From a virus: DNA of 39,677 nucleotides. This document shows, piece by piece, positions 2,155-34,139 of this stretch. The first letter of the stretch is position 1. Each line of letters opens with the position of its first letter. The position numbers were made by a program, and so were the translations under genes. Location of the stretch: UHGV virus genome UHGV-1472620; one strand, written 5' to 3'. Below the pieces are notes generated by a model. It ran no database searches and was not told the origin of the DNA. It was given only the letters and a program-made list of their open reading frames with translations.

Positions 2155-4911
2155 TTAGCTACTTTCAAGCATTGCAAGACGTGATTCTATTTTTTCGATT
2201 CTTCTACGCAAATAAGCTGACTCAAGCCATAAACACTGGTCAGTACGGATACCCCACCTATTTCCAGCCTTGCAAACCAGAGTTCGCTCTTCTGTTTCGT
2301 ATTCTTCTTCCATCTCAATTTCGACGCCATCCACAACTTTAGTGATCATCCTTACCGCCATCACTGGCGCGTATTTATCATCCCATTCATCGTAACAGAG
2401 AAGGCCAAATCTGGTTCCATCAATCCCATGCGCGAGGAAAGTGTCTCTCACTTGTTGTGCTATAACACCAAAATGCCAGCGGGCACCATCTCCCTTTTCC
2501 CTGACGGCATCAAGCCAGCGAAAAGCTACAATCCTGATATCTCCCCATGCATCCAGAATTGCATCACCTTCATAACCACGAGACATATACAAGCTGAGCT
2601 CACTTGTACTAATCGGTTCACTTTTTTCTCTACCATCTGATGTGTTTATCGAACCGTTCGCAGAATAAACCTGTGCCCATCTAAATGATGGTGCACCAAG
2701 AGATTTGCTGTTATCAATAATTGGTGAAAAATTACCTTTAATGGCAATATTTCCAGAGTCGCCGAATACATTAATAACTGCAGAGTCATCACCATGGTTT
2801 TTTACGCTTAAGTTTCTTGATGAAATATTTATATCTTTGTTATATCCACTAACATTAATCCATCTTTTACCATCAGTGTGATACCCGTAAATATTTCCGT
2901 CTGATTGTTCGTCAGGTGACTCTCTAAGAACAATAGCATCTGCTCCAGACGACCATTGTATTTTTGTATCTGTAGGCCTCCAGTTCTTTATAATGAACGA
3001 ACCATCAGTAAACTCCGTTTTTATTTGTCTATTGTCTACAAATGCGTCTCTTGGTTTAAACTCACTTGTGTTAACGCTGCTCTGAAGATCAGAAGCAAAA
3101 AATCTAAGATTTCCTGTATAACCCTGAGTCTCGGTCAGGTTATACGCAATCATAATTCCATTTTCAAACTCAGATGATGTTATTTTAACATCACGGCAAT
3201 CACCAAAAATGCAATTTCCTTTATCAAAGGTTGTTTGAGCTTTGAATTTATCAAACCTTAAATTACGAACAGGGAAACCATCAACCTCTAATGCAAAGGA
3301 TGCAGGAAGGCCAAAGTATTCTGATGGCTTACCTGATGTATGATCAAGAGTAGTGGCTACTGTATTCTCAAAAACAGTCCCGCTAAAATTATTACCAATT
3401 GACGGAAACCTGATTACACTTATTGTACCTTGTATTTCAGGAGAAATACCAGATAGTGTGATGTTAGTTCCATCAAATGATGCATCTGAATACGTATATA
3501 CTGATTCACTGCCAGCAATTTTAAACTGTTTAACTGAAGTTATTCTCATCGACTTTTTATGTTTAAATGTCACTGAGCTTTCAGTATTACTTACAAGATC
3601 AATCTGAGGGCTATTCCTTATCGCGATCCCTGACTGGACATAAACGTTATTAAAGTGCGTTTTTTCAGGATTTCCCTTCATTGAAAGGCTCCCGTCATTT
3701 TCTGTCAGTAGTAGTCCTTTTACCCTCCAATAGCCGACAATCTGTACGTTATCAATAACTGAATCACAGCTATCGTATACATGCAACCCTATATCCCAGT
3801 CATCACCCAATGAATAAGAATCAGGGTTATTGTATCCTTCAATACCATTTTTACTTACCATTATTCTCAGGTTGCGTAACTGTGATGCCCTGTTGATACT
3901 AACAGCTACGCTCATGGCTTTTGGTGTAGCAGGAGTAACACCTACAGAATCTTCATTTGTAAACTCAGTGAACTTACAAGATATCCCTTCAACAATTTTA
4001 ACTGGTCTTTCATTAGAGATGTTAAAAAAATATTTGTTTTTTTCTCCATCACCAGTAAATACAAGATGGGTTCCTTTACTCCAACTTTTTAATAATCTTT
4101 CAGGCGCTGGTCTATATGTATCCCAATAATCAATGCCATCACCAATTAATGACACTCCAGGAGGCACATCTATGTTCTTAGAAATCATCCATTTACCTGC
4201 AGGTATTCTAACGACACTTGCACCAGAATTTATCGCATTAATTAACCATTCAGACGCATCAACTTCAAAATTTAATGCAGCATATCTTTGCTCAAACGGA
4301 ACAAAATCAAGAGCGTTAACGTTATCCCGCATCTTATCCTGGAACGTTCGGTATACTGCTCCAGAACCATACTGAATAAACCAACCAAAACCACCAACAA
4401 CTCCGGCGATTGCAGCATCAACATAATTGCGCATTGATCGATTATTTACAGCATCCTGCTCAAATGATGGATCTGCAAGGTTAGAAATTTTGTTTTGCTT
4501 TGCATCGTAATATTTTGCAAGCAAAGATGGTTTCATCAATGCACGTCTGAACCACCCAAAACATTGCTGGATCAGCATCGTCAGGTAGTCAAAGGCATCT
4601 TCATGCACTTCGGGGAAAAATTTTCCCTGATTGCGAAGGTCTGTCTCCTGCACTACATCAAGCACACGATCTATCGTAATTCGCCATCCAGTAGCAAGCG
4701 GAGACGGAAGAACCACAGAACCGCCACTATAAGTGCCCGCCCCAGTTACCGTATAACCGGTATCCAGAACCAATTCTGTTACGTTTCCGTTCAGATCAGA
4801 CACCTGAACAACCAGGTCTGATTTTCTGAAAATTCGAAAAGTATACGGAAACGATGTCGTAACGCCGTTACCGGTGTATTCGTTGTGGTCAACTTCGGTT
4901 GAGACCGTCAT
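2155..4911 (-). CDS. Tailspike / tail fibre with C-terminal intramolecular chaperone (peptidase S74-like) domain
   Basis: 918 aa; C-terminal SDGREKSEPI ... HFGVIAQQV pattern typical of self-cleaving chaperone domains; AT-rich central region. Confidence 0.8.
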   Translation of the reverse strand: MTVSTEVDHNEYTGNGVTTSFPYTFRIFRKSDLVVQVSDLNGNVTELVLDTGYTVTGAGTYSGGSVVLPSPLATGWRITIDRVLDVVQETDLRNQGKFFPEVHEDAFDYLTMLIQQCFGWFRRALMKPSLLAKYYDAKQNKISNLADPSFEQDAVNNRSMRNYVDAAIAGVVGGFGWFIQYGSGAVYRTFQDKMRDNVNALDFVPFEQRYAALNFEVDASEWLINAINSGASVVRIPAGKWMISKNIDVPPGVSLIGDGIDYWDTYRPAPERLLKSWSKGTHLVFTGDGEKNKYFFNISNERPVKIVEGISCKFTEFTNEDSVGVTPATPKAMSVAVSINRASQLRNLRIMVSKNGIEGYNNPDSYSLGDDWDIGLHVYDSCDSVIDNVQIVGYWRVKGLLLTENDGSLSMKGNPEKTHFNNVYVQSGIAIRNSPQIDLVSNTESSVTFKHKKSMRITSVKQFKIAGSESVYTYSDASFDGTNITLSGISPEIQGTISVIRFPSIGNNFSGTVFENTVATTLDHTSGKPSEYFGLPASFALEVDGFPVRNLRFDKFKAQTTFDKGNCIFGDCRDVKITSSEFENGIMIAYNLTETQGYTGNLRFFASDLQSSVNTSEFKPRDAFVDNRQIKTEFTDGSFIIKNWRPTDTKIQWSSGADAIVLRESPDEQSDGNIYGYHTDGKRWINVSGYNKDINISSRNLSVKNHGDDSAVINVFGDSGNIAIKGNFSPIIDNSKSLGAPSFRWAQVYSANGSINTSDGREKSEPISTSELSLYMSRGYEGDAILDAWGDIRIVAFRWLDAVREKGDGARWHFGVIAQQVRDTFLAHGIDGTRFGLLCYDEWDDKYAPVMAVRMITKVVDGVEIEMEEEYETEERTLVCKAGNRWGIRTDQCLWLESAYLRRRIEKIESRLAMLESS

Positions 4912-5015
4912 GTTAAATCTCCAGATAGTCGCAGCACCCGTTGCGCCGCATATCTGGTTATTCTATTACCTGGAAAACCACATATGGATAGAAAGGCTGT
5001 AAATACGAATAGATA

Positions 5016-5030
5016 TTACCTTTCAGGTAA
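5016..5030. promoter_or_regulatory. Operator-like palindrome TTACC-N5-GGTAA
   Basis: TTACCTTTCAGGTAA, about 75 bp upstream of ATG 5107. Confidence 0.55.
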
Positions 5031-5106
5031 TTTGCAAAACGTGCTGGATAGCAAACAAATTATTTGCTACTGTATAAATATACAGTTATTGCATGGAGAA
5101 GATAAG

Positions 5107-5364
5107 ATGCAGCGGTATCACTATCCACTGGAAGACGGATTTACCGAAAGGATTCACACGCCGGGAGGCGTCAGGTCACTGGTGGAGGGATCGCACTTGA
5201 TGAAATTACTCCGGGATCTCGATAAGGATGGATTTAATGTCGATGGCCCACTTGCCGAACTGACTGCACTGATTAACTACGTCACCAGCTCACAGATGTC
5301 TATGCAGGATCTGCAAACACATCTCGACTATTGTGCCGAACAATTACGAAAACAAACCACATAA
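5107..5364 (+). CDS. Stand-alone paralog of the antirepressor C-terminal domain
   Basis: RIHTPGGVRSLVEGSHLMKLLRDLDKDGFNVDGPLAELTALINY...DLQTHLDY aligns with C-terminus of Bro-N protein 6819-7511; start chosen downstream of the operator. Confidence 0.5.
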   Translation: MQRYHYPLEDGFTERIHTPGGVRSLVEGSHLMKLLRDLDKDGFNVDGPLAELTALINYVTSSQMSMQDLQTHLDYCAEQLRKQTT

Positions 5365-5370
5365 AGAAAA

Positions 5371-5386
5371 GGCCGCGAAAGCGGCC
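5371..5386. terminator. Hairpin GGCCGCGAAAGCGGCC between convergent genes
   Basis: Perfect 6-bp GC stem with GAAA loop between stops at 5364 and 5388; identical hairpin at 8716-8731. Confidence 0.55.
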
Positions 5387-5387
5387 A

Positions 5388-5894
5388 TTAACAGTCGTAA
5401 AATTCTGGGTCCCACAAACTTGCATCGCGCGGCATGGATTCTAACTTTTTCAGCCGCAAAATTCTGTCACACTCGACAACTAATTTTTGCTTCTGCTCGT
5501 CAATTTCTACTGTCTTATGCGCTGGTTCATCCCAATAATCCAGAAGGAAGGCATGGCGTTCAGATGTGACCAGATAAATCACATACACGTCACTGGTTGG
5601 GATCTTTTTATGCTTGTTAGTGGTCTTGTCTTTCTTCCCAGACGCCCAGTTTTTCCAGCATTGTTCCGTACCGCTCTCACCAAACTTGTCAGTATAGTTT
5701 CCGATGTTTAAGTGAACGTGGCGTATGTGATATTCCAGCATCTCTTTCGGTGGATCTCGAAACAGAGTGTCCTTTCCGAAATCCTTATGATGACCGTAGC
5801 GCCAGTGATCTATGAACGCGTTTTTGATAGGTATTAGCTCAGGGTCCTTCCCAAAAATTCCAGGGTGAACCAACCCCTGGAATTTATTCGGCAT
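5388..5894 (-). CDS. Toxin-like protein A, paralog of 7954-8466 (possible YafO-like family)
   Basis: Shares HWRxGHH, GKDTLF, VHxNIG, CTEQCW and YWDxPAH motifs with protein B; ATG overlaps upstream partner stop by 11 nt. Confidence 0.6.
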   Translation of the reverse strand: MPNKFQGLVHPGIFGKDPELIPIKNAFIDHWRYGHHKDFGKDTLFRDPPKEMLEYHIRHVHLNIGNYTDKFGESGTEQCWKNWASGKKDKTTNKHKKIPTSDVYVIYLVTSERHAFLLDYWDEPAHKTVEIDEQKQKLVVECDRILRLKKLESMPRDASLWDPEFYDC

Positions 5895-6399
5895 CGTCGT
5901 AGAGCTCCTGAGCCATGTCTTCAGCAGTGCGTGCAAACATCCTTCGAGAAATTGCATGCGATTTTTCAACAGACATCTTTGGTACTTCTCGCATTACAAC
6001 CTCATGTGACGCTGTAGGCTTAAAAGATGACTTATAATACCGCTTTATCATCTCAACTAATTGCTGCTTATCCTTGGAGCGTCCAGTTTCGATTAGCCTT
6101 GACTCGTAAGGTCGCATTATATTCGTTTGACATGAGGCACGATGAAGCTTATCTGCCAAGATTCCTTCAAAAGATGTGCCCCGGATTTTTAACAATGCCT
6201 CATGCTGGTCGTATTCAGTGATGAACATAACCGGGTATTTTTGCTCAACTTCTTCATCATGAATCCTGATGGCATTGGCAGTTGCTATGGCAGCAGCATA
6301 AGCGGCTGCTTCAATCACCATCTTTTTCTCTTTTTCTTTTTCAGACTTTTTCAAGGTCAAGCGTCTATGCCTCATCGCTGCAACTCTCTTCGTGTTCAT
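5884..6399 (-). CDS. Upstream partner of protein A (antitoxin-like), basic N-terminus and acidic C-terminus
   Basis: Overlaps A start; ends ELYDDAE; track ORF starts at TTG 6411, ATG at 6399 preferred. Confidence 0.5.
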   Translation of the reverse strand: MNTKRVAAMRHRRLTLKKSEKEKEKKMVIEAAAYAAAIATANAIRIHDEEVEQKYPVMFITEYDQHEALLKIRGTSFEGILADKLHRASCQTNIMRPYESRLIETGRSKDKQQLVEMIKRYYKSSFKPTASHEVVMREVPKMSVEKSHAISRRMFARTAEDMAQELYDDAE

Positions 6400-6536
6400 G
6401 GGCACCCCCAACTACCTCTAGGGTAAACATTCTATCGAAAGTATACGCATACTGGCAAAAAAATAGGCAGGCATTTTCTGAAATGGGATCAATCAAACCA
6501 CATAGGGTTGAAATAACGTGAGTTATGCATTTATTA

Positions 6537-6551
6537 TTACCTTTACGGTAA
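6537..6551. promoter_or_regulatory. Operator-like palindrome TTACC-N5-GGTAA
   Basis: TTACCTTTACGGTAA in divergent intergenic region between A' and Bro-N gene. Confidence 0.55.
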
Positions 6552-6818
6552 ATTTACATCGCACTCCTCTTGTGCCATAGTAATCGGGCACTGGCAAAAT
6601 CCAGTGCCGGGATTGGTCTCCCGGATTACTACAGAGGCACATATGCCGCATAAGCGGTTTTTTTATGTGTAAAGCGCACCTATTCTATGGTGGGCTGTGT
6701 GGGGGCACCGAAAGGTGCGCCGGGTTCCTTTGTAGCCGGTAAGACCAACTCTGCACAGTTCACCACCATCTGATTGGTCTCAGCGGTGGTGATTAACCTA
6801 ACTACAAAGGTGATCGCC

Positions 6819-7511
6819 ATGAATACCAAACCTTCCATCTTTTCCTTTGAGTCATCCTGCCAGATCCGTATGTTCATGATTGACGGAGAACCTTGGTTTG
6901 TCACCAAAGATGTGTGCAATGCTTTGAATATTGATGTTACACAAGCGAGAAAACTTGATAAAAAAGGCTGGAACAAAAAGGGGCTGTATTCAATACAGAC
7001 CCCTGGTGGAATACAAGAACTATCCATCGTTTCAGAATCAGGTCTCTACATCCTTATTCTGCGTTGCAAAGAGGCAATGACTGAGGGAACGAGAGCATTC
7101 AGATTTCTTGAATGGGTTACAGGTGAGGTTCTTCCTCAGATCCGCCGCACCGGAAGTTACATTAAAAACTCGCTCCCGCAGGAAGAACGCATAAAGATGG
7201 TTGCCGACCAGGTAGCCAACGCCACGGCGTCAGCAGTGATGCAGGCAATGAAGATAGAGAACAAAACCTACAGTGCCCCGCTGAAGCCCGGCTACCGCAG
7301 TCTGATTCATTCTCCGTCTGGTGTTCTCGGCCTGACGGAGAACTCACTGCTGATGAATCTGCTGAACCAGTTGCAGGACGACGGGCATGATGTATCGGGC
7401 GCGGCGGCGGAACTGACCACCATGTTCTGCTACATTGTCGGTGTGAGCAAATGCCTGCGTGATATCCAGACGCACGCGGAGTACATCAACGACAAGGCAG
7501 GGTTCTTCTGA
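6819..7511 (+). CDS. Antirepressor with N-terminal Bro-N domain
   Basis: N-terminal FESSCQIRMFMIDGEPWFVTKDVCNALNI ... SESGLYILILRCKE resembles Bro-N/Ant; AAGGTGA Shine-Dalgarno before ATG 6819. Confidence 0.75.
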   Translation: MNTKPSIFSFESSCQIRMFMIDGEPWFVTKDVCNALNIDVTQARKLDKKGWNKKGLYSIQTPGGIQELSIVSESGLYILILRCKEAMTEGTRAFRFLEWVTGEVLPQIRRTGSYIKNSLPQEERIKMVADQVANATASAVMQAMKIENKTYSAPLKPGYRSLIHSPSGVLGLTENSLLMNLLNQLQDDGHDVSGAAAELTTMFCYIVGVSKCLRDIQTHAEYINDKAGFF

Positions 7512-7583
7512 CGGGCGGTGGCACAGGGATGTGCCTTTAAATAATTCTGTACAGATTGCAGACCGGGGGTGAATAGCGTACTA

Positions 7584-7598
7584 TTACCTTAAAGGTAA
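7584..7598. promoter_or_regulatory. Operator-like palindrome TTACC-N5-GGTAA
   Basis: TTACCTTAAAGGTAA, 43 bp upstream of B' start. Confidence 0.55.
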
Positions 7599-7640
7599 AC
7601 CTGTTTTTATTTTATACCTGTAACTTACCGGAGATTAAAG

Positions 7641-7967
7641 ATGACAAAACTTGGATTCGTGATGAGAGGTCCGGTAAGAAGCGGAACTCATGCAAAGCGT
7701 AGCAAGAGTCGTATTTTTACTGGTAAGGTTGTAGCACGTAAATCAGCTATTGGCTCGTTCAATAGTGAAAATGCGGCATTGCGCCATATTTTTATCAGCA
7801 CAAAGCCAAGAGCATCCGCTGATGTGCATACAATGTCTATTCCTATCACAAAGAATATAAAGCGGATAAAAAAGCTCTCATCTGCAGAATCAAAAGAGAT
7901 ATCTTTCCGCCAGCTTAACTCATTAGAAACGCATATGAAGGAAGAGGAATTCGATGTTTTTGAGTGA
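7641..7967 (+). CDS. Upstream partner of protein B (antitoxin-like), basic N-terminus and acidic C-terminus
   Basis: 108 aa, ends KEEEFDVFE; stop overlaps B start by 14 nt; GGAG Shine-Dalgarno before ATG. Confidence 0.5.
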   Translation: MTKLGFVMRGPVRSGTHAKRSKSRIFTGKVVARKSAIGSFNSENAALRHIFISTKPRASADVHTMSIPITKNIKRIKKLSSAESKEISFRQLNSLETHMKEEEFDVFE

Positions 7968-8466
7968 GTATAGCGGGAAGGTTATACCTACTGGTGAGTT
8001 TAAAACTGATGACTTTCTGATTTCGCTAAAAGATGCTTTTAAACAACACTGGCGTCATGGTCATCATCCTGATCTGGGAAAAGATACTCTTTTTGAAAGA
8101 CCAGAGGAAGTATTAGGCTTCCATCTCAGAAAGGTTCATGTCAATATTGGTGAATATGCATCATATTCATACTCATGTACTGAACAGTGTTGGGATGAGT
8201 GGTCATATGGATTGATTGATGAACAAGGAAATTACAGGCCAAAACCAACCAGTAACGCATATCTCATATATGCAGTCAATGAAATAAGAGATGCAGCCTT
8301 ACTAGCTTATTGGGACCCGCCCGCACACACCAAAGCTAACGCAAAAGTTTGGATGGATTCCGTATTGAATTTCACAAAATTATTTCATGAACGAACGAAT
8401 ACAGCTCCACTTAGTAGAAATGTTTATCCGTGGGATTATTCGTACAAATCCAAAAAGCCTGCATAG
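7954..8466 (+). CDS. Toxin-like protein B, paralog of 5388-5894 (possible YafO-like family)
   Basis: Motifs shared with A (see above); strong GAAGGAAGAGGA Shine-Dalgarno; AT-rich coding region. Confidence 0.6.
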   Translation: MFLSEYSGKVIPTGEFKTDDFLISLKDAFKQHWRHGHHPDLGKDTLFERPEEVLGFHLRKVHVNIGEYASYSYSCTEQCWDEWSYGLIDEQGNYRPKPTSNAYLIYAVNEIRDAALLAYWDPPAHTKANAKVWMDSVLNFTKLFHERTNTAPLSRNVYPWDYSYKSKKPA

Positions 8467-8547
8467 TAGTTTTTTATGGACGAAACAAAAGTCAGTGCTA
8501 CACTCATTGACGCCACATTGAGGTGGTTTATAGATGGAAATTTCACA

Positions 8548-8709
8548 ATGAAAAAAGCATTTGCTGCACTGTTCGTTTTGTTGTCTCTGGTAGCTTCAAC
8601 TCAGGCCTTTGCCGGTCGTTGTCAGCACGACAGCGATACTGCCGCTGACGGCTCCCGCTGCGGTGGGCGTTCTGCGGATTCCCGCCCGGGCGGCGGTGGC
8701 ATTCGTTAA
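8548..8709 (+). CDS. Small secreted peptide (signal peptide plus about 30-aa Cys/Gly-rich mature part)
   Basis: MKKAFAALFVLLSLVASTQAFA signal-like N-terminus; track ORF begins at 8476 but signal peptide favours 8548; weak Shine-Dalgarno. Confidence 0.35.
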   Translation: MKKAFAALFVLLSLVASTQAFAGRCQHDSDTAADGSRCGGRSADSRPGGGGIR

Positions 8710-8715
8710 AAACAA

Positions 8716-8737
8716 GGCCGCGAAAGCGGCCTGTTTG
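8716..8737. terminator. Hairpin GGCCGCGAAAGCGGCC plus T-tract
   Basis: Same hairpin as 5371-5386, followed by TGTTTG; sits between convergent stops 8709 and 8739. Confidence 0.6.
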
Positions 8738-8738
8738 A

Positions 8739-9590
8739 TCACTGTGCAGTTTTCGCTGATCGATTTTCAGCTCTAAATTCAAGAACCGTTTCAATATTTC
8801 TTTCCTTCAGCATATCAATAACATTTTTATTCATTTGACTATCACTGGTTAATAACTGGTAAACGTTGCTTCTCTCTTTATCAGAGTTTTCTTTAACAGC
8901 TGCTTTGCATGCCAAATGCTTATTGAAATTTTCTACATCGCTAGTACAGGAATTTACGGCTGCTGATGAAATATCAGACGCTGAAGAAACACCATCATCC
9001 AAACGTTTTATAGCATTTTCTATACATGAGTTAAGGGAATAAACGACAACTGAGCGATACCCTTCAGACGCACACCATTCTAAATTTCTTGAAGGATCGA
9101 GTGGTTTTACTTCGCTGGATTGAATTAACTTGTCAAAAACTGACTTATATTCAATCTGTTTTTTATCTATAGCCCATACTTCAGTAGCTGATTTATAATT
9201 CCCCGTATGCCTATTAACATCAAATCCATGCTTTATAAGCAAATCTGCCCATGAAAGATTTATTGATTCATTGTTATGAGGCCATTTTCCTGTCAGAACC
9301 GCCCCCATAGACCCCATATATCCGCCATATGATGGTATAGCACCATGGCTCAGTAACTTCTCAGCAACCACAGGGCAATTAATTACATAAGAGGCGTAAA
9401 GCCCATTCCATAAAGCCCCTCTATAGTAATCGCCACGATTAGGTTCTTTTAAGTCGATAGCCTTTGATAATTGTTCACACGTTTTGCATGCATCAAAGTT
9501 ATCCTTATTGCATTGCAATGAACTGGCAGCTGTAGGATTTACAGAGACTATTGAAAGCACTATGCCAAAAAACAAATTTATTTTTTTCAT
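8739..9590 (-). CDS. Secreted or periplasmic protein of unknown function
   Basis: N-terminal signal peptide MKKINLFFGIVLSIVSVNPTAASS; AT-rich; start abuts stop of 1129-aa virion protein (TAGGATG). Confidence 0.6.
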   Translation of the reverse strand: MKKINLFFGIVLSIVSVNPTAASSLQCNKDNFDACKTCEQLSKAIDLKEPNRGDYYRGALWNGLYASYVINCPVVAEKLLSHGAIPSYGGYMGSMGAVLTGKWPHNNESINLSWADLLIKHGFDVNRHTGNYKSATEVWAIDKKQIEYKSVFDKLIQSSEVKPLDPSRNLEWCASEGYRSVVVYSLNSCIENAIKRLDDGVSSASDISSAAVNSCTSDVENFNKHLACKAAVKENSDKERSNVYQLLTSDSQMNKNVIDMLKERNIETVLEFRAENRSAKTAQ

Positions 9591-9591
9591 C

Positions 9592-12500
9592 CTATTTCAT
9601 CTGCTCTTCAACTTTATTTAGTAATGGTGATATCGCCCACAGATTCTGAAAAGGTAGCATTTTACGGACAGCGTGGGTTTGCTGGCTGTCAAATTCTCCG
9701 TTAAGTACACCATTTGCAACCGTCGCGGCATCACCGCCAAGATCAAAGGTAGGACCAAGTAAAGCACCAATAGCATTACGACTCTGAAACCTTGATACCG
9801 GAGGCGCACCAAACATCGCGCCAAGACCAAACCTACCGCCGCTTATGTTCTCAACGGTATTCAGCGGCTCAGAGAGCCAGCCAAGCATTCCGCCCCGGTC
9901 GATCCCCTCTTTCACAAGGTTATTCCAGCTGTAGTCGATATCGCGACCGCTTAACTTCTGTTTCATCATATAGACCATTGAGCCAAGCGCAATCGTGCCA
10001 AGCGCACCAAGATAGAATGCAGCATCGCCCTGCTGGATACCAGATACCAGCACCCTGTTATGCTGTGCGAAGATAAACGTTTTGAACTGCGTGATCATCT
10101 TCCAGCCTTCTTTACTAAAAAACAGCGGTGTATCACCTACGCCAGGCGTTACAATCACTGAGTCTACATCTTTCAGCACTGCAGACTGGAAAATCTCTCT
10201 AGCGAAACGGTCATCCCACAGATGACTATGCCCGGTTAACAGCCCGTCCATATCCTCTCCGTGCTTCCCGAATTGCTCCCCGATTCGGCGCAGAACATCT
10301 TCATTGATGCCGACCTGTGCCATCTTCCGCATTTCACTTTTGGAGAGCGTGCCACCAGCAGAAACTTGGCGAGCCGCGTCAAGTATCCTCGACTGCACTA
10401 TCATCCCGGACCATGATTTAAGTGCGCTGTTCCACTGATTCATCAGCGTCCAGTTACCGAATTTCTGCGTCATCCAGTTCAGACCTCGCTCAGCGGCGCT
10501 TCTCCGGCTATAGGGGTCAGTAAGATCCGCTATAGCCTTTGTACGCGTAGACAGGACATAATCAAGCCCAACGGCCATTTCTCGCAAATCCCTGGTTGCA
10601 ATTTTCACTGAGTCCATATTTTTAAGCATGCTTACCATTGGTCCGAGAGATTTTCTCAGGCCATGCTGCATCATCGGTCGCATCAGATCAGTTGCAGCGG
10701 AGACAGTCATTCCACCAAGCAAACGGAGGAAGTTAATATTCCTAGCAACTCGCCCGGCACGAACAAAGAAACTGCGTGGATCTTGAGGTGCGCCGTAAGT
10801 ACCAAGCAGTCGATCACGCATAGCCGTAATATCCCTAATATCAGCCTCCCGTTGCTTCTCAAGAGCTGCACGTCGTTTAGGTGTTTTAGCCTCTTTTATT
10901 AGCCGGGTATATTCCTCACTAACCTGACGGATTTGCTCCCCCATATCTTTACGGCCAAACTGCGCAGTCAGCTCAATTTCTGGCGCCACCTGCCGGAGAT
11001 AACTTTCCATGATGTAGTTAACATCTGATTCAAGAAAATCTTCTATACGCTCATCAGGAATAAGCAGCGTTCGGCTTTTAGTGAAACCAGCCCGACCAAC
11101 GAGTCTCTCTGGGATAATATCGGCTGGTACAAGCCCGGAAGGTGCGCCTATTATTTTATTCACGATCTCGTCAGCAGCGTCCTCTGCTTCCTCTCGGGAT
11201 AGAGGCTCCATCTGCTTCAGTGCTCGTTCGCGGCTTGCATTCAGCCTTGTGGTTGAATTTGCCCGTTTTTGCAGTCGGCGAAGCTCAGAACGATATTTCC
11301 GTGGATTATCCAGCAACTCCATATGGCGCTGATAGACAGGAAGCTCACTCTTTGCCTGCGCTATATCATCAAGGCGTGTTTTAAGGTCAGAGCTTTCTTT
11401 CATCATTCTTGCCTGAAGTTTTTCTGATGAAGTCTCGGCCAACTCTTTTTCTATTCTTGTAAGACGCGCCTGTGTGTCAGTCTCCTGAGATATAAGCTTA
11501 TTTCGTTTATCCAGTTCTTCCATGAGTAGAATTTTTTTACCAGACCATTTCTCCGCTTCAGCGATTTCACTAGCGAGAGCATCAGCGCGCGGTGCTGATT
11601 CCTCTGCAGTTTTTAGCAATGAATTTATCCTTTCAATTCGCTGACCTGCTTTGTCAGCACCTTTGGCACTAATCCCTTGTATCCAGTTGGCAATTCGCCC
11701 TCTGAATTCAGTGCGGTCGGAAAGTATCTTATCGAACTTATAAATGCGGGGAAGATAACTTTTCGCCGTCACGACATCGATATCCTCAGGAAGGATCCCC
11801 AGTTCCTGCATACGGGCTTTTGTGGTCTCGAAAATGGGGCGGATTCTGGCGGCTGCTTGTGAAACCTCAGGAATATCACTCTGATCACCACGGCGCATAG
11901 CCATGCCAACAGCTTCATTGAAATCAATAAAGTTCATCCTCTTCACGCCGCGGTCGCTAACAGATTTGCTGTACTGCTGGTAAGCATCACGAGTAGCTTC
12001 CATCTGCTTATAAAGCATGGCGTCGTATTGCTTAATCTTAGTCTCGACTGCCGTAAACGTAGCCAACCCCTCATCATTTTTGGCGAAGAAATAGTTATTT
12101 TCGGCAAGCTGCTGGTTAATCTGACGGGAAACAAGAGATGGTGATTGCGCCAAGCGGCCAGCAGGAGTGACACTCAACGTTTTGTTAGCAAGTCCAAGTC
12201 CAGCGAGCTGTTCCTGATCGAGTGTGGTATTGAAAACCTGAGCTGCACCAATGCTTTGAGGAGAATCCATACCTCGCAAATGATTACCTACTGAGTTAAC
12301 CACTGCCTCGCGCGCGCTAGGTCCAGCAAGTAGCTGTGCACCAGCACCAAGGATCCCACCAACGAGAGCATCAACAACAACGTTCGATACGCTCTCCATC
12401 GGTGAGCGAGCTTCCTGAGTGGCCTGCAATGCGGCCTCTGAAGCAACACTGCCAGCAGCATTGGCTAAAGCAAAACGTCCGGCTGTTTCTGCAATACGAC

Positions 12501-12981
12501 CGCCACGAACGACAGCGCCGAACGGAATAAACATAGAAATCGCATTGAATGGATCTGCTAATCTCATTGCTACAGAAGAGACTGTACCAGCAAATCCCAA
12601 GCCTGAATTGTATTCCATGTCAGCTCTCTGCTGATCGATTCGATGTTTAATTGCCATTGTTTCTTCAGGCGAACCGGAGTTGATAAACGAATCTGCAAAA
12701 TCTTCATAGCCTTTAATATCTGCTGCATCGTTATCAAATGGGTTATATCCTTCAACCCTGTCAAACTGACTGAAAGGAGCACTGGCAATAAAGCTACCCA
12801 GCGTGTTATCTATACGAAATGCTGCTTGTCTAGACCTTTGAACGCGTTGATCACTGGTAAATGGGTTCACAGCAGAAAGCAAAGAAGGTGTTTCCATATA
12901 GAAATTACTGTCATCAGGTGCTGCTATTTGCTGAATATCCTCGCCAAGCAACTCTTTAGGATCCTGTTCATATATCGGCAT
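9592..12981 (-). CDS. Very large internal virion / ejection protein
   Basis: 1129 aa with long charged coiled-coil centre and Gly/Ala-rich N-terminus; position in late operon. Confidence 0.7.
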   Translation of the reverse strand: MPIYEQDPKELLGEDIQQIAAPDDSNFYMETPSLLSAVNPFTSDQRVQRSRQAAFRIDNTLGSFIASAPFSQFDRVEGYNPFDNDAADIKGYEDFADSFINSGSPEETMAIKHRIDQQRADMEYNSGLGFAGTVSSVAMRLADPFNAISMFIPFGAVVRGGRIAETAGRFALANAAGSVASEAALQATQEARSPMESVSNVVVDALVGGILGAGAQLLAGPSAREAVVNSVGNHLRGMDSPQSIGAAQVFNTTLDQEQLAGLGLANKTLSVTPAGRLAQSPSLVSRQINQQLAENNYFFAKNDEGLATFTAVETKIKQYDAMLYKQMEATRDAYQQYSKSVSDRGVKRMNFIDFNEAVGMAMRRGDQSDIPEVSQAAARIRPIFETTKARMQELGILPEDIDVVTAKSYLPRIYKFDKILSDRTEFRGRIANWIQGISAKGADKAGQRIERINSLLKTAEESAPRADALASEIAEAEKWSGKKILLMEELDKRNKLISQETDTQARLTRIEKELAETSSEKLQARMMKESSDLKTRLDDIAQAKSELPVYQRHMELLDNPRKYRSELRRLQKRANSTTRLNASRERALKQMEPLSREEAEDAADEIVNKIIGAPSGLVPADIIPERLVGRAGFTKSRTLLIPDERIEDFLESDVNYIMESYLRQVAPEIELTAQFGRKDMGEQIRQVSEEYTRLIKEAKTPKRRAALEKQREADIRDITAMRDRLLGTYGAPQDPRSFFVRAGRVARNINFLRLLGGMTVSAATDLMRPMMQHGLRKSLGPMVSMLKNMDSVKIATRDLREMAVGLDYVLSTRTKAIADLTDPYSRRSAAERGLNWMTQKFGNWTLMNQWNSALKSWSGMIVQSRILDAARQVSAGGTLSKSEMRKMAQVGINEDVLRRIGEQFGKHGEDMDGLLTGHSHLWDDRFAREIFQSAVLKDVDSVIVTPGVGDTPLFFSKEGWKMITQFKTFIFAQHNRVLVSGIQQGDAAFYLGALGTIALGSMVYMMKQKLSGRDIDYSWNNLVKEGIDRGGMLGWLSEPLNTVENISGGRFGLGAMFGAPPVSRFQSRNAIGALLGPTFDLGGDAATVANGVLNGEFDSQQTHAVRKMLPFQNLWAISPLLNKVEEQMK

Positions 12982-33554: not shown

Positions 33555-34139
33555 ATGAAAAGTATCCAGGACGTCCGCAGGCAAAATCTCAACGACTTGA
33601 TCGACCGTGAATTCAATGGTGTTCAGACGCGGATGGCAGAAAAACTTGGAACTCAGGCAAATCTGGTAAACCGCTGGGCTCTTGGCAAGAAGGTTATCGG
33701 CGACCAGGTTGCGCGAAAAATTGAAGCTGCCGCCAATAAACCCCGTAACTGGCTTGATATCGATCGCTCGCTTTCTCAGGAAGGTTTTCAGCCTGTCGGC
33801 CCAAGCGACATTGGTCAGCTGGCGGCTCACAACCTGGAACGCTGGATGAGCGAAAGCCGCGACCTTTCAACGCAGGGAAAACTTCACCGCGCATCCGGCG
33901 TCGCCCAGGTGACAATCAGTCGCCTGTTAAACAATGAGGTCAGCGTTTCCATTTCCACCCTGGAGAATGTTGCATCCGCATTCGGGCGTCACGGATATGA
34001 ACTACTGATTCACCCGCACGACCCTGCGACTATCAACTATGACCGCTCGCGCTACGCATTGTTACCCGAAACCGAGAAAGCAAAGATCGAAAGTTACATT
34101 GAATTTGTCATCAACCAGAACGAAAAAAGCAAACAATAA
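33555..34139 (+). CDS. Prophage repressor with tandem HTH domains and no peptidase domain
   Basis: Two Cro/C1-type HTH-like segments; no Ser-Lys autopeptidase region seen. Confidence 0.7.
   Translation: MKSIQDVRRQNLNDLIDREFNGVQTRMAEKLGTQANLVNRWALGKKVIGDQVARKIEAAANKPRNWLDIDRSLSQEGFQPVGPSDIGQLAAHNLERWMSESRDLSTQGKLHRASGVAQVTISRLLNNEVSVSISTLENVASAFGRHGYELLIHPHDPATINYDRSRYALLPETEKAKIESYIEFVINQNEKSKQ

Follow-up and report, generated by a model that had tools for sequence, protein, structure and literature searches.

Paralogous gene cassettes with YafO-like putative toxins flank the antirepressor gene of an epsilon15/phiV10-like prophage

Toxin-antitoxin (TA) modules are well known in prophages, and so is the swapping of their partner (antitoxin) genes. 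YafO is a growth-arresting, mRNA-cleaving toxin that is neutralized by YafN (PMC2814082), and an antitoxin-first gene order is listed for PF_YafO modules (PMC11980606). Two gene pairs, A'-A and B'-B, whose second members are YafO-like, occupy positions 5388-8466 of the virus genome UHGV-1472620 (39,677 nt; hereafter the window, to whose positions all coordinates refer). The window is a temperate epsilon15/phiV10-like (Uetakevirus) podophage integrated in Escherichia coli, and the pairs lie on either side of its antirepressor gene (ant). The original prediction for this region, duplicated toxin-like two-gene modules with unrelated partners around an antirepressor, describes a real arrangement, and its YafO/TA interpretation is supported. 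The reading that is favored here, and considered likely, is that A'-A and B'-B are paralogous antitoxin-first type II TA-like cassettes encoding YafO-like RNases, which are neutralized by a C-terminal tail of the partner and whose transcription is probably under the control of the phage immunity switch.

The two putative toxins are paralogs, with 46% identity over 150 aa (E 2e-38). The motifs HWR(Y/H)GHH, GKDTLF, VH(L/V)NIG and YWD(E/P)PAH are present in both as first listed, but the CTEQCW motif reads GTEQCW in A, so that only TEQCW is common. Both genes already bear the RefSeq/PGAP name 'type II toxin-antitoxin system YafO family toxin', and the toxin assignment itself is therefore not new. 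An exhaustive profile search with the A/B family, covering 1.84 billion cluster representatives, returns just 65 clusters at E ≤ 1e-3. The majority are 'long forms' of 160-200 aa, and at the weak end of the search stand proteins of 133-147 aa with the terminus ..FR(K/N)(R/N)F, as in E. coli YafO. The resemblance to YafO, initially suggested by the spacing of motifs, is borne out by profile comparisons: YafO_toxin (PF13957) is matched weakly by A and B and, at E ≤ 0.01, by 30 of the 49 aligned family members (best E 1e-39), and an ortholog of B (P0008, 77% identical) carries a precomputed match to this family. In a partly circular comparison, hhalign aligns 36 long forms with six canonical YafOs, including K-12 YafO as encoded in its genome, with a probability of 99.3% (E 7e-21, 107 columns); a direct BLASTP comparison of A with YafO yields E 0.003 over 54 aa. 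Four residues (F29, G42, H62 and H125, B numbering throughout) are invariant across 49 sequences including K-12 YafO and are kept in A and B. The pair also retains D44, P50 and Y106, each at least 90% conserved in the same set, and all long forms have Arg112. The extra length noticed at the outset, put at about 40 aa, amounts to ~38 residues relative to YafO and consists of a C-terminal extension and a segment inserted between core strands two and three. Both proteins belong to phrog_1651, whose function is unknown (A, E 7e-46). An NCBIfam scan of eight local proteins including A and B gave nothing relevant, and A, B, A', B' and their neighbors have no match at E ≤ 1 among the anti-phage defense models of PADLOC-DB v2.

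The AlphaFold model of B falls into the RelE-type toxin fold class, and both proteins are predicted to have a RelE/HigB-like (BECR) RNase fold with an insertion of ~25-40 residues and a C-terminal extension. Neither A nor B nor a profile of the 49 family sequences finds a relative among the sequences of the PDB, which implies that no YafO-family structure has been solved; in Foldseek, the B model has no significant match in the PDB or among the BFVD viral structures. The ratio of non-synonymous to synonymous substitution rates (dN/dS) of the toxin is 0.02-0.16 in most pairs of loci; in one very close pair (L042-L043) it is about 0.45 in toxin, partner tail and partner N-terminal part alike. 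Given these ratios and the retention of the residues that are invariant in canonical YafO, A and B are strongly constrained.

Each toxin gene is overlapped by the end of a partner gene. The overlaps of 11 nt (A'/A) and 14 nt (B'/B) are as first described, and they recur widely. A scan of IMG/VR with A/B motifs yielded 42 loci, nearly all on viral contigs of ~25-45 kb, and in all 42 an upstream open reading frame (ORF) on the same strand overlaps the start of the YafO-like gene, by 11 nt in the A type and by 14 nt in the B type and in a third, 'C' type; such recurrence is not due to chance. In both pairs the Shine-Dalgarno sequence of the toxin gene sits inside the 3' end of the partner gene (for A, AGGAG 9 nt upstream of the start). 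Even distant long forms, on a hydrothermal-vent contig and a plasmid-like contig, have an upstream same-strand gene of 73-76 aa. The antitoxin-first order and the translational coupling of the A/B pairs fit the order given for PF_YafO (PMC11980606).

The partners themselves are highly diverse, ranging from 108 to 175 aa in the IMG/VR loci, and A' belongs to no Pfam, NCBIfam or PADLOC family. The claim that A' and B' are dissimilar stands for the whole proteins, between which BLASTP finds no similarity, but not for their last ~36 residues, which share an order-specific motif. These residues are conserved within each type (..PKMSVEKSHAISRRMFARTAEDMAQELYDDAE in the A type, ..KLSSAESKEISFRQLNSLETHMKEEEFDVFE in the B type and ..KKMTFTEACNISRELSDSREERLMSASFDGPE in the C type), and the motif common to the three, ungapped from the C-terminus, is (M/L/I)(S/T)..E....(I/L)S.R..(L/F)....E..(M/L)....(F/Y)D..E-COOH. 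When a hidden Markov model (HMM) of the B and C tails is run against 3,551 ORF segments, most A-type partners come next-best with E 0.009-0.03; noise begins at 3.6, and the A-type tails that diverge most (L056-L058) do not stand out from it. An HMM of the A and C tails recovers all B types (E 3.5e-5 to 0.1). The A' tail scores 18.6 bits against the B+C model and the B' tail 13.9 bits against the A+C model, values that 0 of 2000 composition-preserving shuffles reach in either case, and the 10.7 bits of a C tail in a cross-type HMM are likewise reached by 0 of 2000 shuffles. The tail of gp45 of Escherichia phage TL-2011b is marginal, with 5 of 2000 shuffles scoring as well, and the shuffle test also failed for the partners of L007 and L010, the two most remote homologs of the long form. 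A' and B' are thus not wholly unrelated and have a short C-terminal module in common. This shared tail probably marks the unannotated partners as antitoxins with a replaceable body.

The two portions of the partner evolve differently. In most pairs dN/dS is 0.01-0.10 in the tail and 0.26-0.58 in the N-terminal part; for A' alone the ranges are 0.01-0.08 and 0.29-0.49. Tail identity follows toxin identity, whereas the identity of the N-terminal part does not (e.g., 97/97/25%), and where the toxins are 96-99% identical, the N-terminal parts of A' share only 25-66% of their residues. The boundary is visible in the DNA: relative to E. coli FDAARGOS_497, the A-A' module has a breakpoint at 5998/5999, with no DNA similarity in the N-terminal part and flanks that are 97% identical, and 54 of 58 E. 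coli genomes match just nt 1-611 of the A-A' query. B' has few homologs; its N-terminal 10 residues and C-terminal tail are invariant and its middle is variable. Its AlphaFold model (predicted local distance difference test score, pLDDT, 56) reaches 70-81 only in the helix 89-107, so that B' is predicted to be mostly disordered with a C-terminal helix. At another IMG/VR locus (L051), an A-type tail is found on an N-terminal region otherwise typical of C-type partners (L042 and L043; BLASTP E 4.5e-6 and 2e-5), and partner bodies and tails thus recombine independently.

Comparison with relatives defines two cargo slots beside ant, a left one at ~5387-6526 and a right one at ~7554-8469, with cassette breakpoints at 5387/6526 and 7554/8469. 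In the left slot, the place taken by A'-A in the window is filled by a 242-aa hypothetical protein in E. coli PS_131_S11, and phiV10 has no cargo there. The right slot is occupied by B'-B in the window, by a hypothetical protein and a DUF2335 protein in FDAARGOS_497 and by a fourth YafO-like type in TL-2011b, and it is almost empty in phiV10. The FDAARGOS_497 cargo (L005 3162-3963) is an overlapping pair, formed by a 108-aa hypothetical protein and the DUF2335 membrane protein, and that of PS_131_S11 (L006 988-1716) is a Cys-rich protein whose N-terminus is transmembrane; both cargoes come with an operator of their own. Among 5,426 complete E. coli genomes, B'-B is present in 69, always at least 99% identical, and A in 58; a 4.8-kb query spanning both pairs is matched over at least 80% in four genomes. 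Divergent double modules, of the A+B or A+TL-2011b type, occur in 4 of the 42 IMG/VR loci, and in a set of 50,697 records a long form is encoded by just two distinct isolated phages. Judged from these alignments, both pairs are independently inserted, exchangeable cassettes in two slots flanking ant.

The palindrome TTACC-N5-GGTAA occurs in 10 perfect copies in the window, where 0.01 are expected, and in 16 copies when one mismatch is allowed (0.64 expected). Operator-like sites lie at 5016, 6412 (one mismatch), 6537, 7584, 25026, 28171, 31092, 31154, 33485, 34197 and 34259, together with further one-mismatch sites. They flank the HTH_3 repressor gene (33555-34139) and precede early operons, and for this reason the palindrome is most likely the operator of the prophage repressor; two of them (25026 and 28171) are away from the immunity region. 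The epsilon15 genome paper reportedly gives an ATTACC...GGTAAT operator; literature searches turned up no open-access text on the epsilon15/phiV10 operator. Each transcription unit of the region (the gp19-like ORF at 5016, A'A, ant and B'B) has a promoter-like -10 abutted by such a site. The modules thus stand behind an operator-like palindrome, as originally proposed, B'B with a perfect site and A'A with a one-mismatch site at the same position relative to the -10. Control of the cassettes by the phage immunity switch is probable because of this abutment. On other contigs, B- and C-type modules have the operator 40-60 bp upstream of the partner start, and the alternative cargo of the slots shows the same upstream placement; this recurrence makes it reasonable to suppose that derepression turns the modules on. 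Each cassette has a single operator, whereas the sites near the repressor gene are paired.

Between the pairs, the antirepressor reported in the original prediction is borne out by its BRO-N domain and its matches to the PHROG anti-repressor Ant (Table 1). For the related Uetakevirus vB_EcoP_ZX5, overexpression of the antirepressor (ORF4) shifted the lysis/lysogeny balance (PMC9782041). The ant leader of ~270 nt (fold z -4.8) has a terminator-like hairpin at 6645-6658 and matches two Rfam families above their gathering scores, the isrK Hfq-binding RNA (74.7 bits) and the C4 antisense RNA (78.6 bits); a match to the c4 a1/b1 targets (39.9 bits) is below the gathering score. The arrangement looks like post-transcriptional control of the antirepressor of the P1/P7 immI or the Gifsy-1 IsrK type in a Uetakevirus. 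Farther to the left, a free-standing 85-aa ORF (5107-5364, plus strand; epsilon15 gp19-like, phrog_450) has its own operator at 5016-5030 and is 42% identical to the Ant C-terminal domain (residues 149-222, E 2e-15); this ORF could encode a truncated Ant paralog that competes with or modulates Ant.

Table 1. Positions of the two gene pairs, the antirepressor locus and associated sites in the window.
Feature	Position	Strand	Description	Basis
Hairpin GGCCGCGAAAGCGGCC	5371-5386	-	Terminator-like on the minus strand; outer edge of left slot	
Toxin A	5388-5894	-	168 aa, long-form YafO-family (RelE/BECR-fold) protein	ORF, paralog of B; RefSeq WP_001673565.1 'YafO family toxin'
Partner A'	5884-6399	-	171 aa, putative antitoxin; stop overlaps A start by 11 nt	ORF, phrog_9503
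A' conserved tail MREVPKMSVEKSHAISRRMFARTAEDMAQELYDDAE	5884-5994	-	Putative toxin-binding segment	Tail HMM, dN/dS, breakpoint
A' replaceable N-terminal/middle part	5999-6366	-	Weakly constrained	Allele comparison, dN/dS
A'A promoter-like site TTGCCA-18-TAGAAT	6412-6458	-	Abutted by one-mismatch operator TTACCCTAGAGGTAG (6412-6426)	Function inferred
ant promoter-like site TTGAAA-18-TATTAT	6508-6551	+	Overlapped by perfect operator 6537-6551	
ant leader RNAs	6575-6770	+	isrK-like 6588-6664; C4 antisense RNA 6683-6770; a1/b1 targets 6575-6627	Rfam
Antirepressor	6819-7511	+	BRO-N domain, Ant-type C-terminal domain	PF02498 E 1.8e-13; phrog_130 E 2e-50 (PHROG anti-repressor Ant)
B'B promoter-like site TTGCAG-17-TACTAT	7556-7598	+	Overlapped by perfect operator 7584-7598	Read from sequence
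Partner B'	7641-7967	+	108 aa, putative antitoxin; stop overlaps B start by 14 nt	ORF, phrog_5933
B' conserved tail	7857-7967	+		Tail HMM
Toxin B	7954-8466	+	170 aa, long-form YafO-family (RelE/BECR-fold) protein	

The E. coli Combat2C1 chromosome matches window positions 4900-9700 at 100% identity, and its RefSeq annotation carries the same four coding sequences (A, A', B, B'). Phage EC.W1-9 is 98% identical to parts of this region, and phiV10, TL-2011b, vB_EcoP_ZX5 and phiv142-3 also match parts of it. Both pairs are placed between a tail-fiber gene (2155-4911, minus strand) and a large DUF919 virion gene (9592-12981, minus strand), and near-identical copies of the hairpin GGCCGCGAAAGCGGCC, the second at about 8715-8732 on the right-hand boundary, bracket the whole accessory region. 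The tail-fiber ORF is intact in the window (918 aa), with a C-terminus that resembles an intramolecular chaperone domain; its Combat2C1 counterpart is a RefSeq partial pseudogene that lacks the C-terminus, and in relatives the enzymatic head encoded here differs, the products being annotated as endosialidase beta-propeller, glycosyl hydrolase family 28-related and eliminase. Two moron-like genes stand to the right of the pairs. One adjoins the right slot (8476-8709, plus strand) and encodes a small signal-peptide protein of phrog_14503 ('membrane associated protein'); the other (8739-9590, minus strand) encodes a 283-aa protein with a signal-like N-terminus (phrog_6118, function unknown).

If the cassettes are TA modules as favored here, A and B would most likely halt translation by cleaving mRNA via the family-invariant His62 and His125. 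Each toxin is translationally coupled to its upstream partner, the acidic C-terminal ~36 residues of which (predicted to be helical in B') would bind and neutralize the toxin of the same pair, the rest of the partner being weakly constrained, probably largely disordered and often exchanged. Each cassette would bring its own promoter, the -10 of which is abutted by the prophage repressor operator, and its transcription would probably be low in the lysogen and would start along with that of ant at infection or induction. Autoregulation by the antitoxin probably does not govern this transcription: the promoter of each cassette is abutted by a phage-repressor-type operator, and a search of the partners for DNA-binding domains came back empty, although such an absence is no proof.

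A number of points weigh against this account. The ribosome dependence of YafO itself is disputed (PMC8546651). YafO_toxin is the sole Pfam family found for A (17.6 bits) and B (20.1 bits), and both scores are under the 25-bit gathering threshold; the circularity of the hhalign comparison comes from the five canonical YafOs other than K-12 YafO, all recruited by the A/B profile. A Pfam scan of 12 partners (A', B' and ten divergent variants) detected no family at all above noise, neither Phd/YefM nor another antitoxin or DNA-binding domain. The tail HMMs are short, ungapped and anchored at the C-terminus, and what looks by eye like a similarity of the partner tails to the C-terminus of YafN is not significant (439 of 2000 shuffles score as well). 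Finally, a TA module with a labile antitoxin that is expressed on entry and then shut off in the lysogen would poison new lysogens, so that repression would have to be leaky, or the partner stable, or the module would have to work only in the derepressed state, in a purely lytic-phase role.

The same paradox, under strict repression, favors some expression in the lysogen, and thereby the possible, though less probable, explanation that the cassettes are ordinary prophage TA modules, leakily or constitutively expressed and acting in the lysogen in retention or abortive-infection defense, with partial or incidental operators. Prophage-borne TA modules are commonly discussed as defense or stabilization genes (PMC11980606), and a yafO-like pair has been noted in the Salmonella prophage mTmII (PMC9836087). 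The alternation of unrelated cargo in the slots, as in accessory-gene hot spots, would also agree with such a role, and the single operator of each cassette, compared with the paired sites at the repressor gene, could mean weak repression. However, all cassettes, like the modules on other contigs, have the operator directly at the -10, a placement that looks selected rather than incidental, and PADLOC matches none of the proteins. A more elaborate proposal, which appears unlikely, is that the cassettes form a distinct 'immunity-wired' TA class, in which the repressor operator and not the antitoxin sets transcription, the cassettes fire with the antirepressor upon derepression of the prophage or entry of the phage into a cell, and the rapidly changing N-terminal part of the partner serves as a sensor or decoy that times the release of the toxin by the conserved tail, e.g., when a competing phage appears or an induction fails.

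Less probable still is that A and B are inactive or non-toxic RelE-fold proteins, e.g., ribosome- or RNA-binding phage factors, and that the upstream genes are co-translated accessories and not part of a TA pair. A BECR fold does not have to be an RNase, as the example of ParE illustrates (PMC11980606), and both the sub-threshold Pfam scores of A and B and the partners without known antitoxin domains would agree with this. Yet the invariant residues of canonical YafO are kept, the low dN/dS values indicate strong constraint, the antitoxin-first overlap is strictly conserved, and unless there is a specific complex, a partner tail that co-varies with the toxin has no easy explanation. That A and B are GHH/HNH-type DNases, as the original prediction had entertained, is highly improbable, since apart from the local 'GHH' string in the two proteins nothing speaks for it: no HNH, GHH or other nuclease Pfam family is matched at E ≤ 1, the family motif is G(Y/F/H/P)HP (GYHP, GFHP or GPHP in relatives) with a His pair of which the second His is not conserved, and the predicted fold is RelE-type and not beta-beta-alpha-metal.

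What is new here is a long-form subfamily with a RelE/HigB-like predicted fold, the tail of its partners, the two-slot cassettes around ant and the operator wiring. If the favored reading is correct, a long-form, phage-borne branch would be added to the small and structurally uncharacterized YafO family, and previously unannotated antitoxins could be recognized by a short common C-terminal motif. Toxins that are nearly the same but have highly dissimilar partner bodies, and the presence of two paralogous pairs in a single genome, would offer a clean natural test set for antitoxin specificity. The operator wiring would tie TA expression to the lysis/lysogeny switch, a link that is mostly considered in the opposite direction. 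The A/B modules do not overturn current understanding.

Of the known systems, YafN-YafO of E. coli K-12 is like the cassettes in its homologous toxin core, with the motifs FG(K/R)D, the xHxH strand, TSD..LxY and AH in common, and in its antitoxin-first, closely coupled genes. Unlike YafO, A and B contain a conserved W..W helix in the insertion and fall below the Pfam cut-off. A' and B' are not of the Phd/YefM type and, tail included, have no significant similarity to YafN, but the antitoxin type is not usually treated as defining toxin families. The setting also differs: yafNO belongs to the SOS dinB operon, whereas the A/B modules occupy a prophage cargo slot linked to immunity and are apparently controlled by the phage operator. 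Relative to Vibrio cholerae HigB2 and other RelE/HigB/YoeB/YafQ (BECR) toxins, identity is 6-18%, Foldseek gives no significant match and there is no family membership at the sequence level; moreover, HigB modules are toxin-first, unlike A'-A and B'-B.

The antirepressor locus resembles immI of P1/P7 (c4 antisense RNA-icd-ant) and the IsrK-antirepressor locus of Salmonella Gifsy-1, and on the strength of the isrK and C4 matches in the ant leader the cassettes appear to sit in an immI-like secondary immunity region. It differs from both in that primary-repressor operators are also present at ant and at each flanking cassette; to our knowledge, no YafO-type module has been reported from either the P1/P7 immI or the Gifsy-1 locus. 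Searches of the literature turned up no work on YafO-like modules of the long form or on such modules in a Uetakevirus. The closest counterparts in isolated Uetakevirus-like phages are the gp45-gp44 pair of TL-2011b and the corresponding genes of EC.W1-9, in which a long-form YafO-like gene (gp44 is a 'YafO family toxin' in RefSeq) lies in the right or the left slot by ant, with a small overlapping gene and an operator upstream. The TL-2011b pair represents a fourth toxin/partner type, the toxin being 33% identical to B and the 59-aa partner having a weak tail match. TL-2011b and EC.W1-9 carry one module each, whereas the window carries two.

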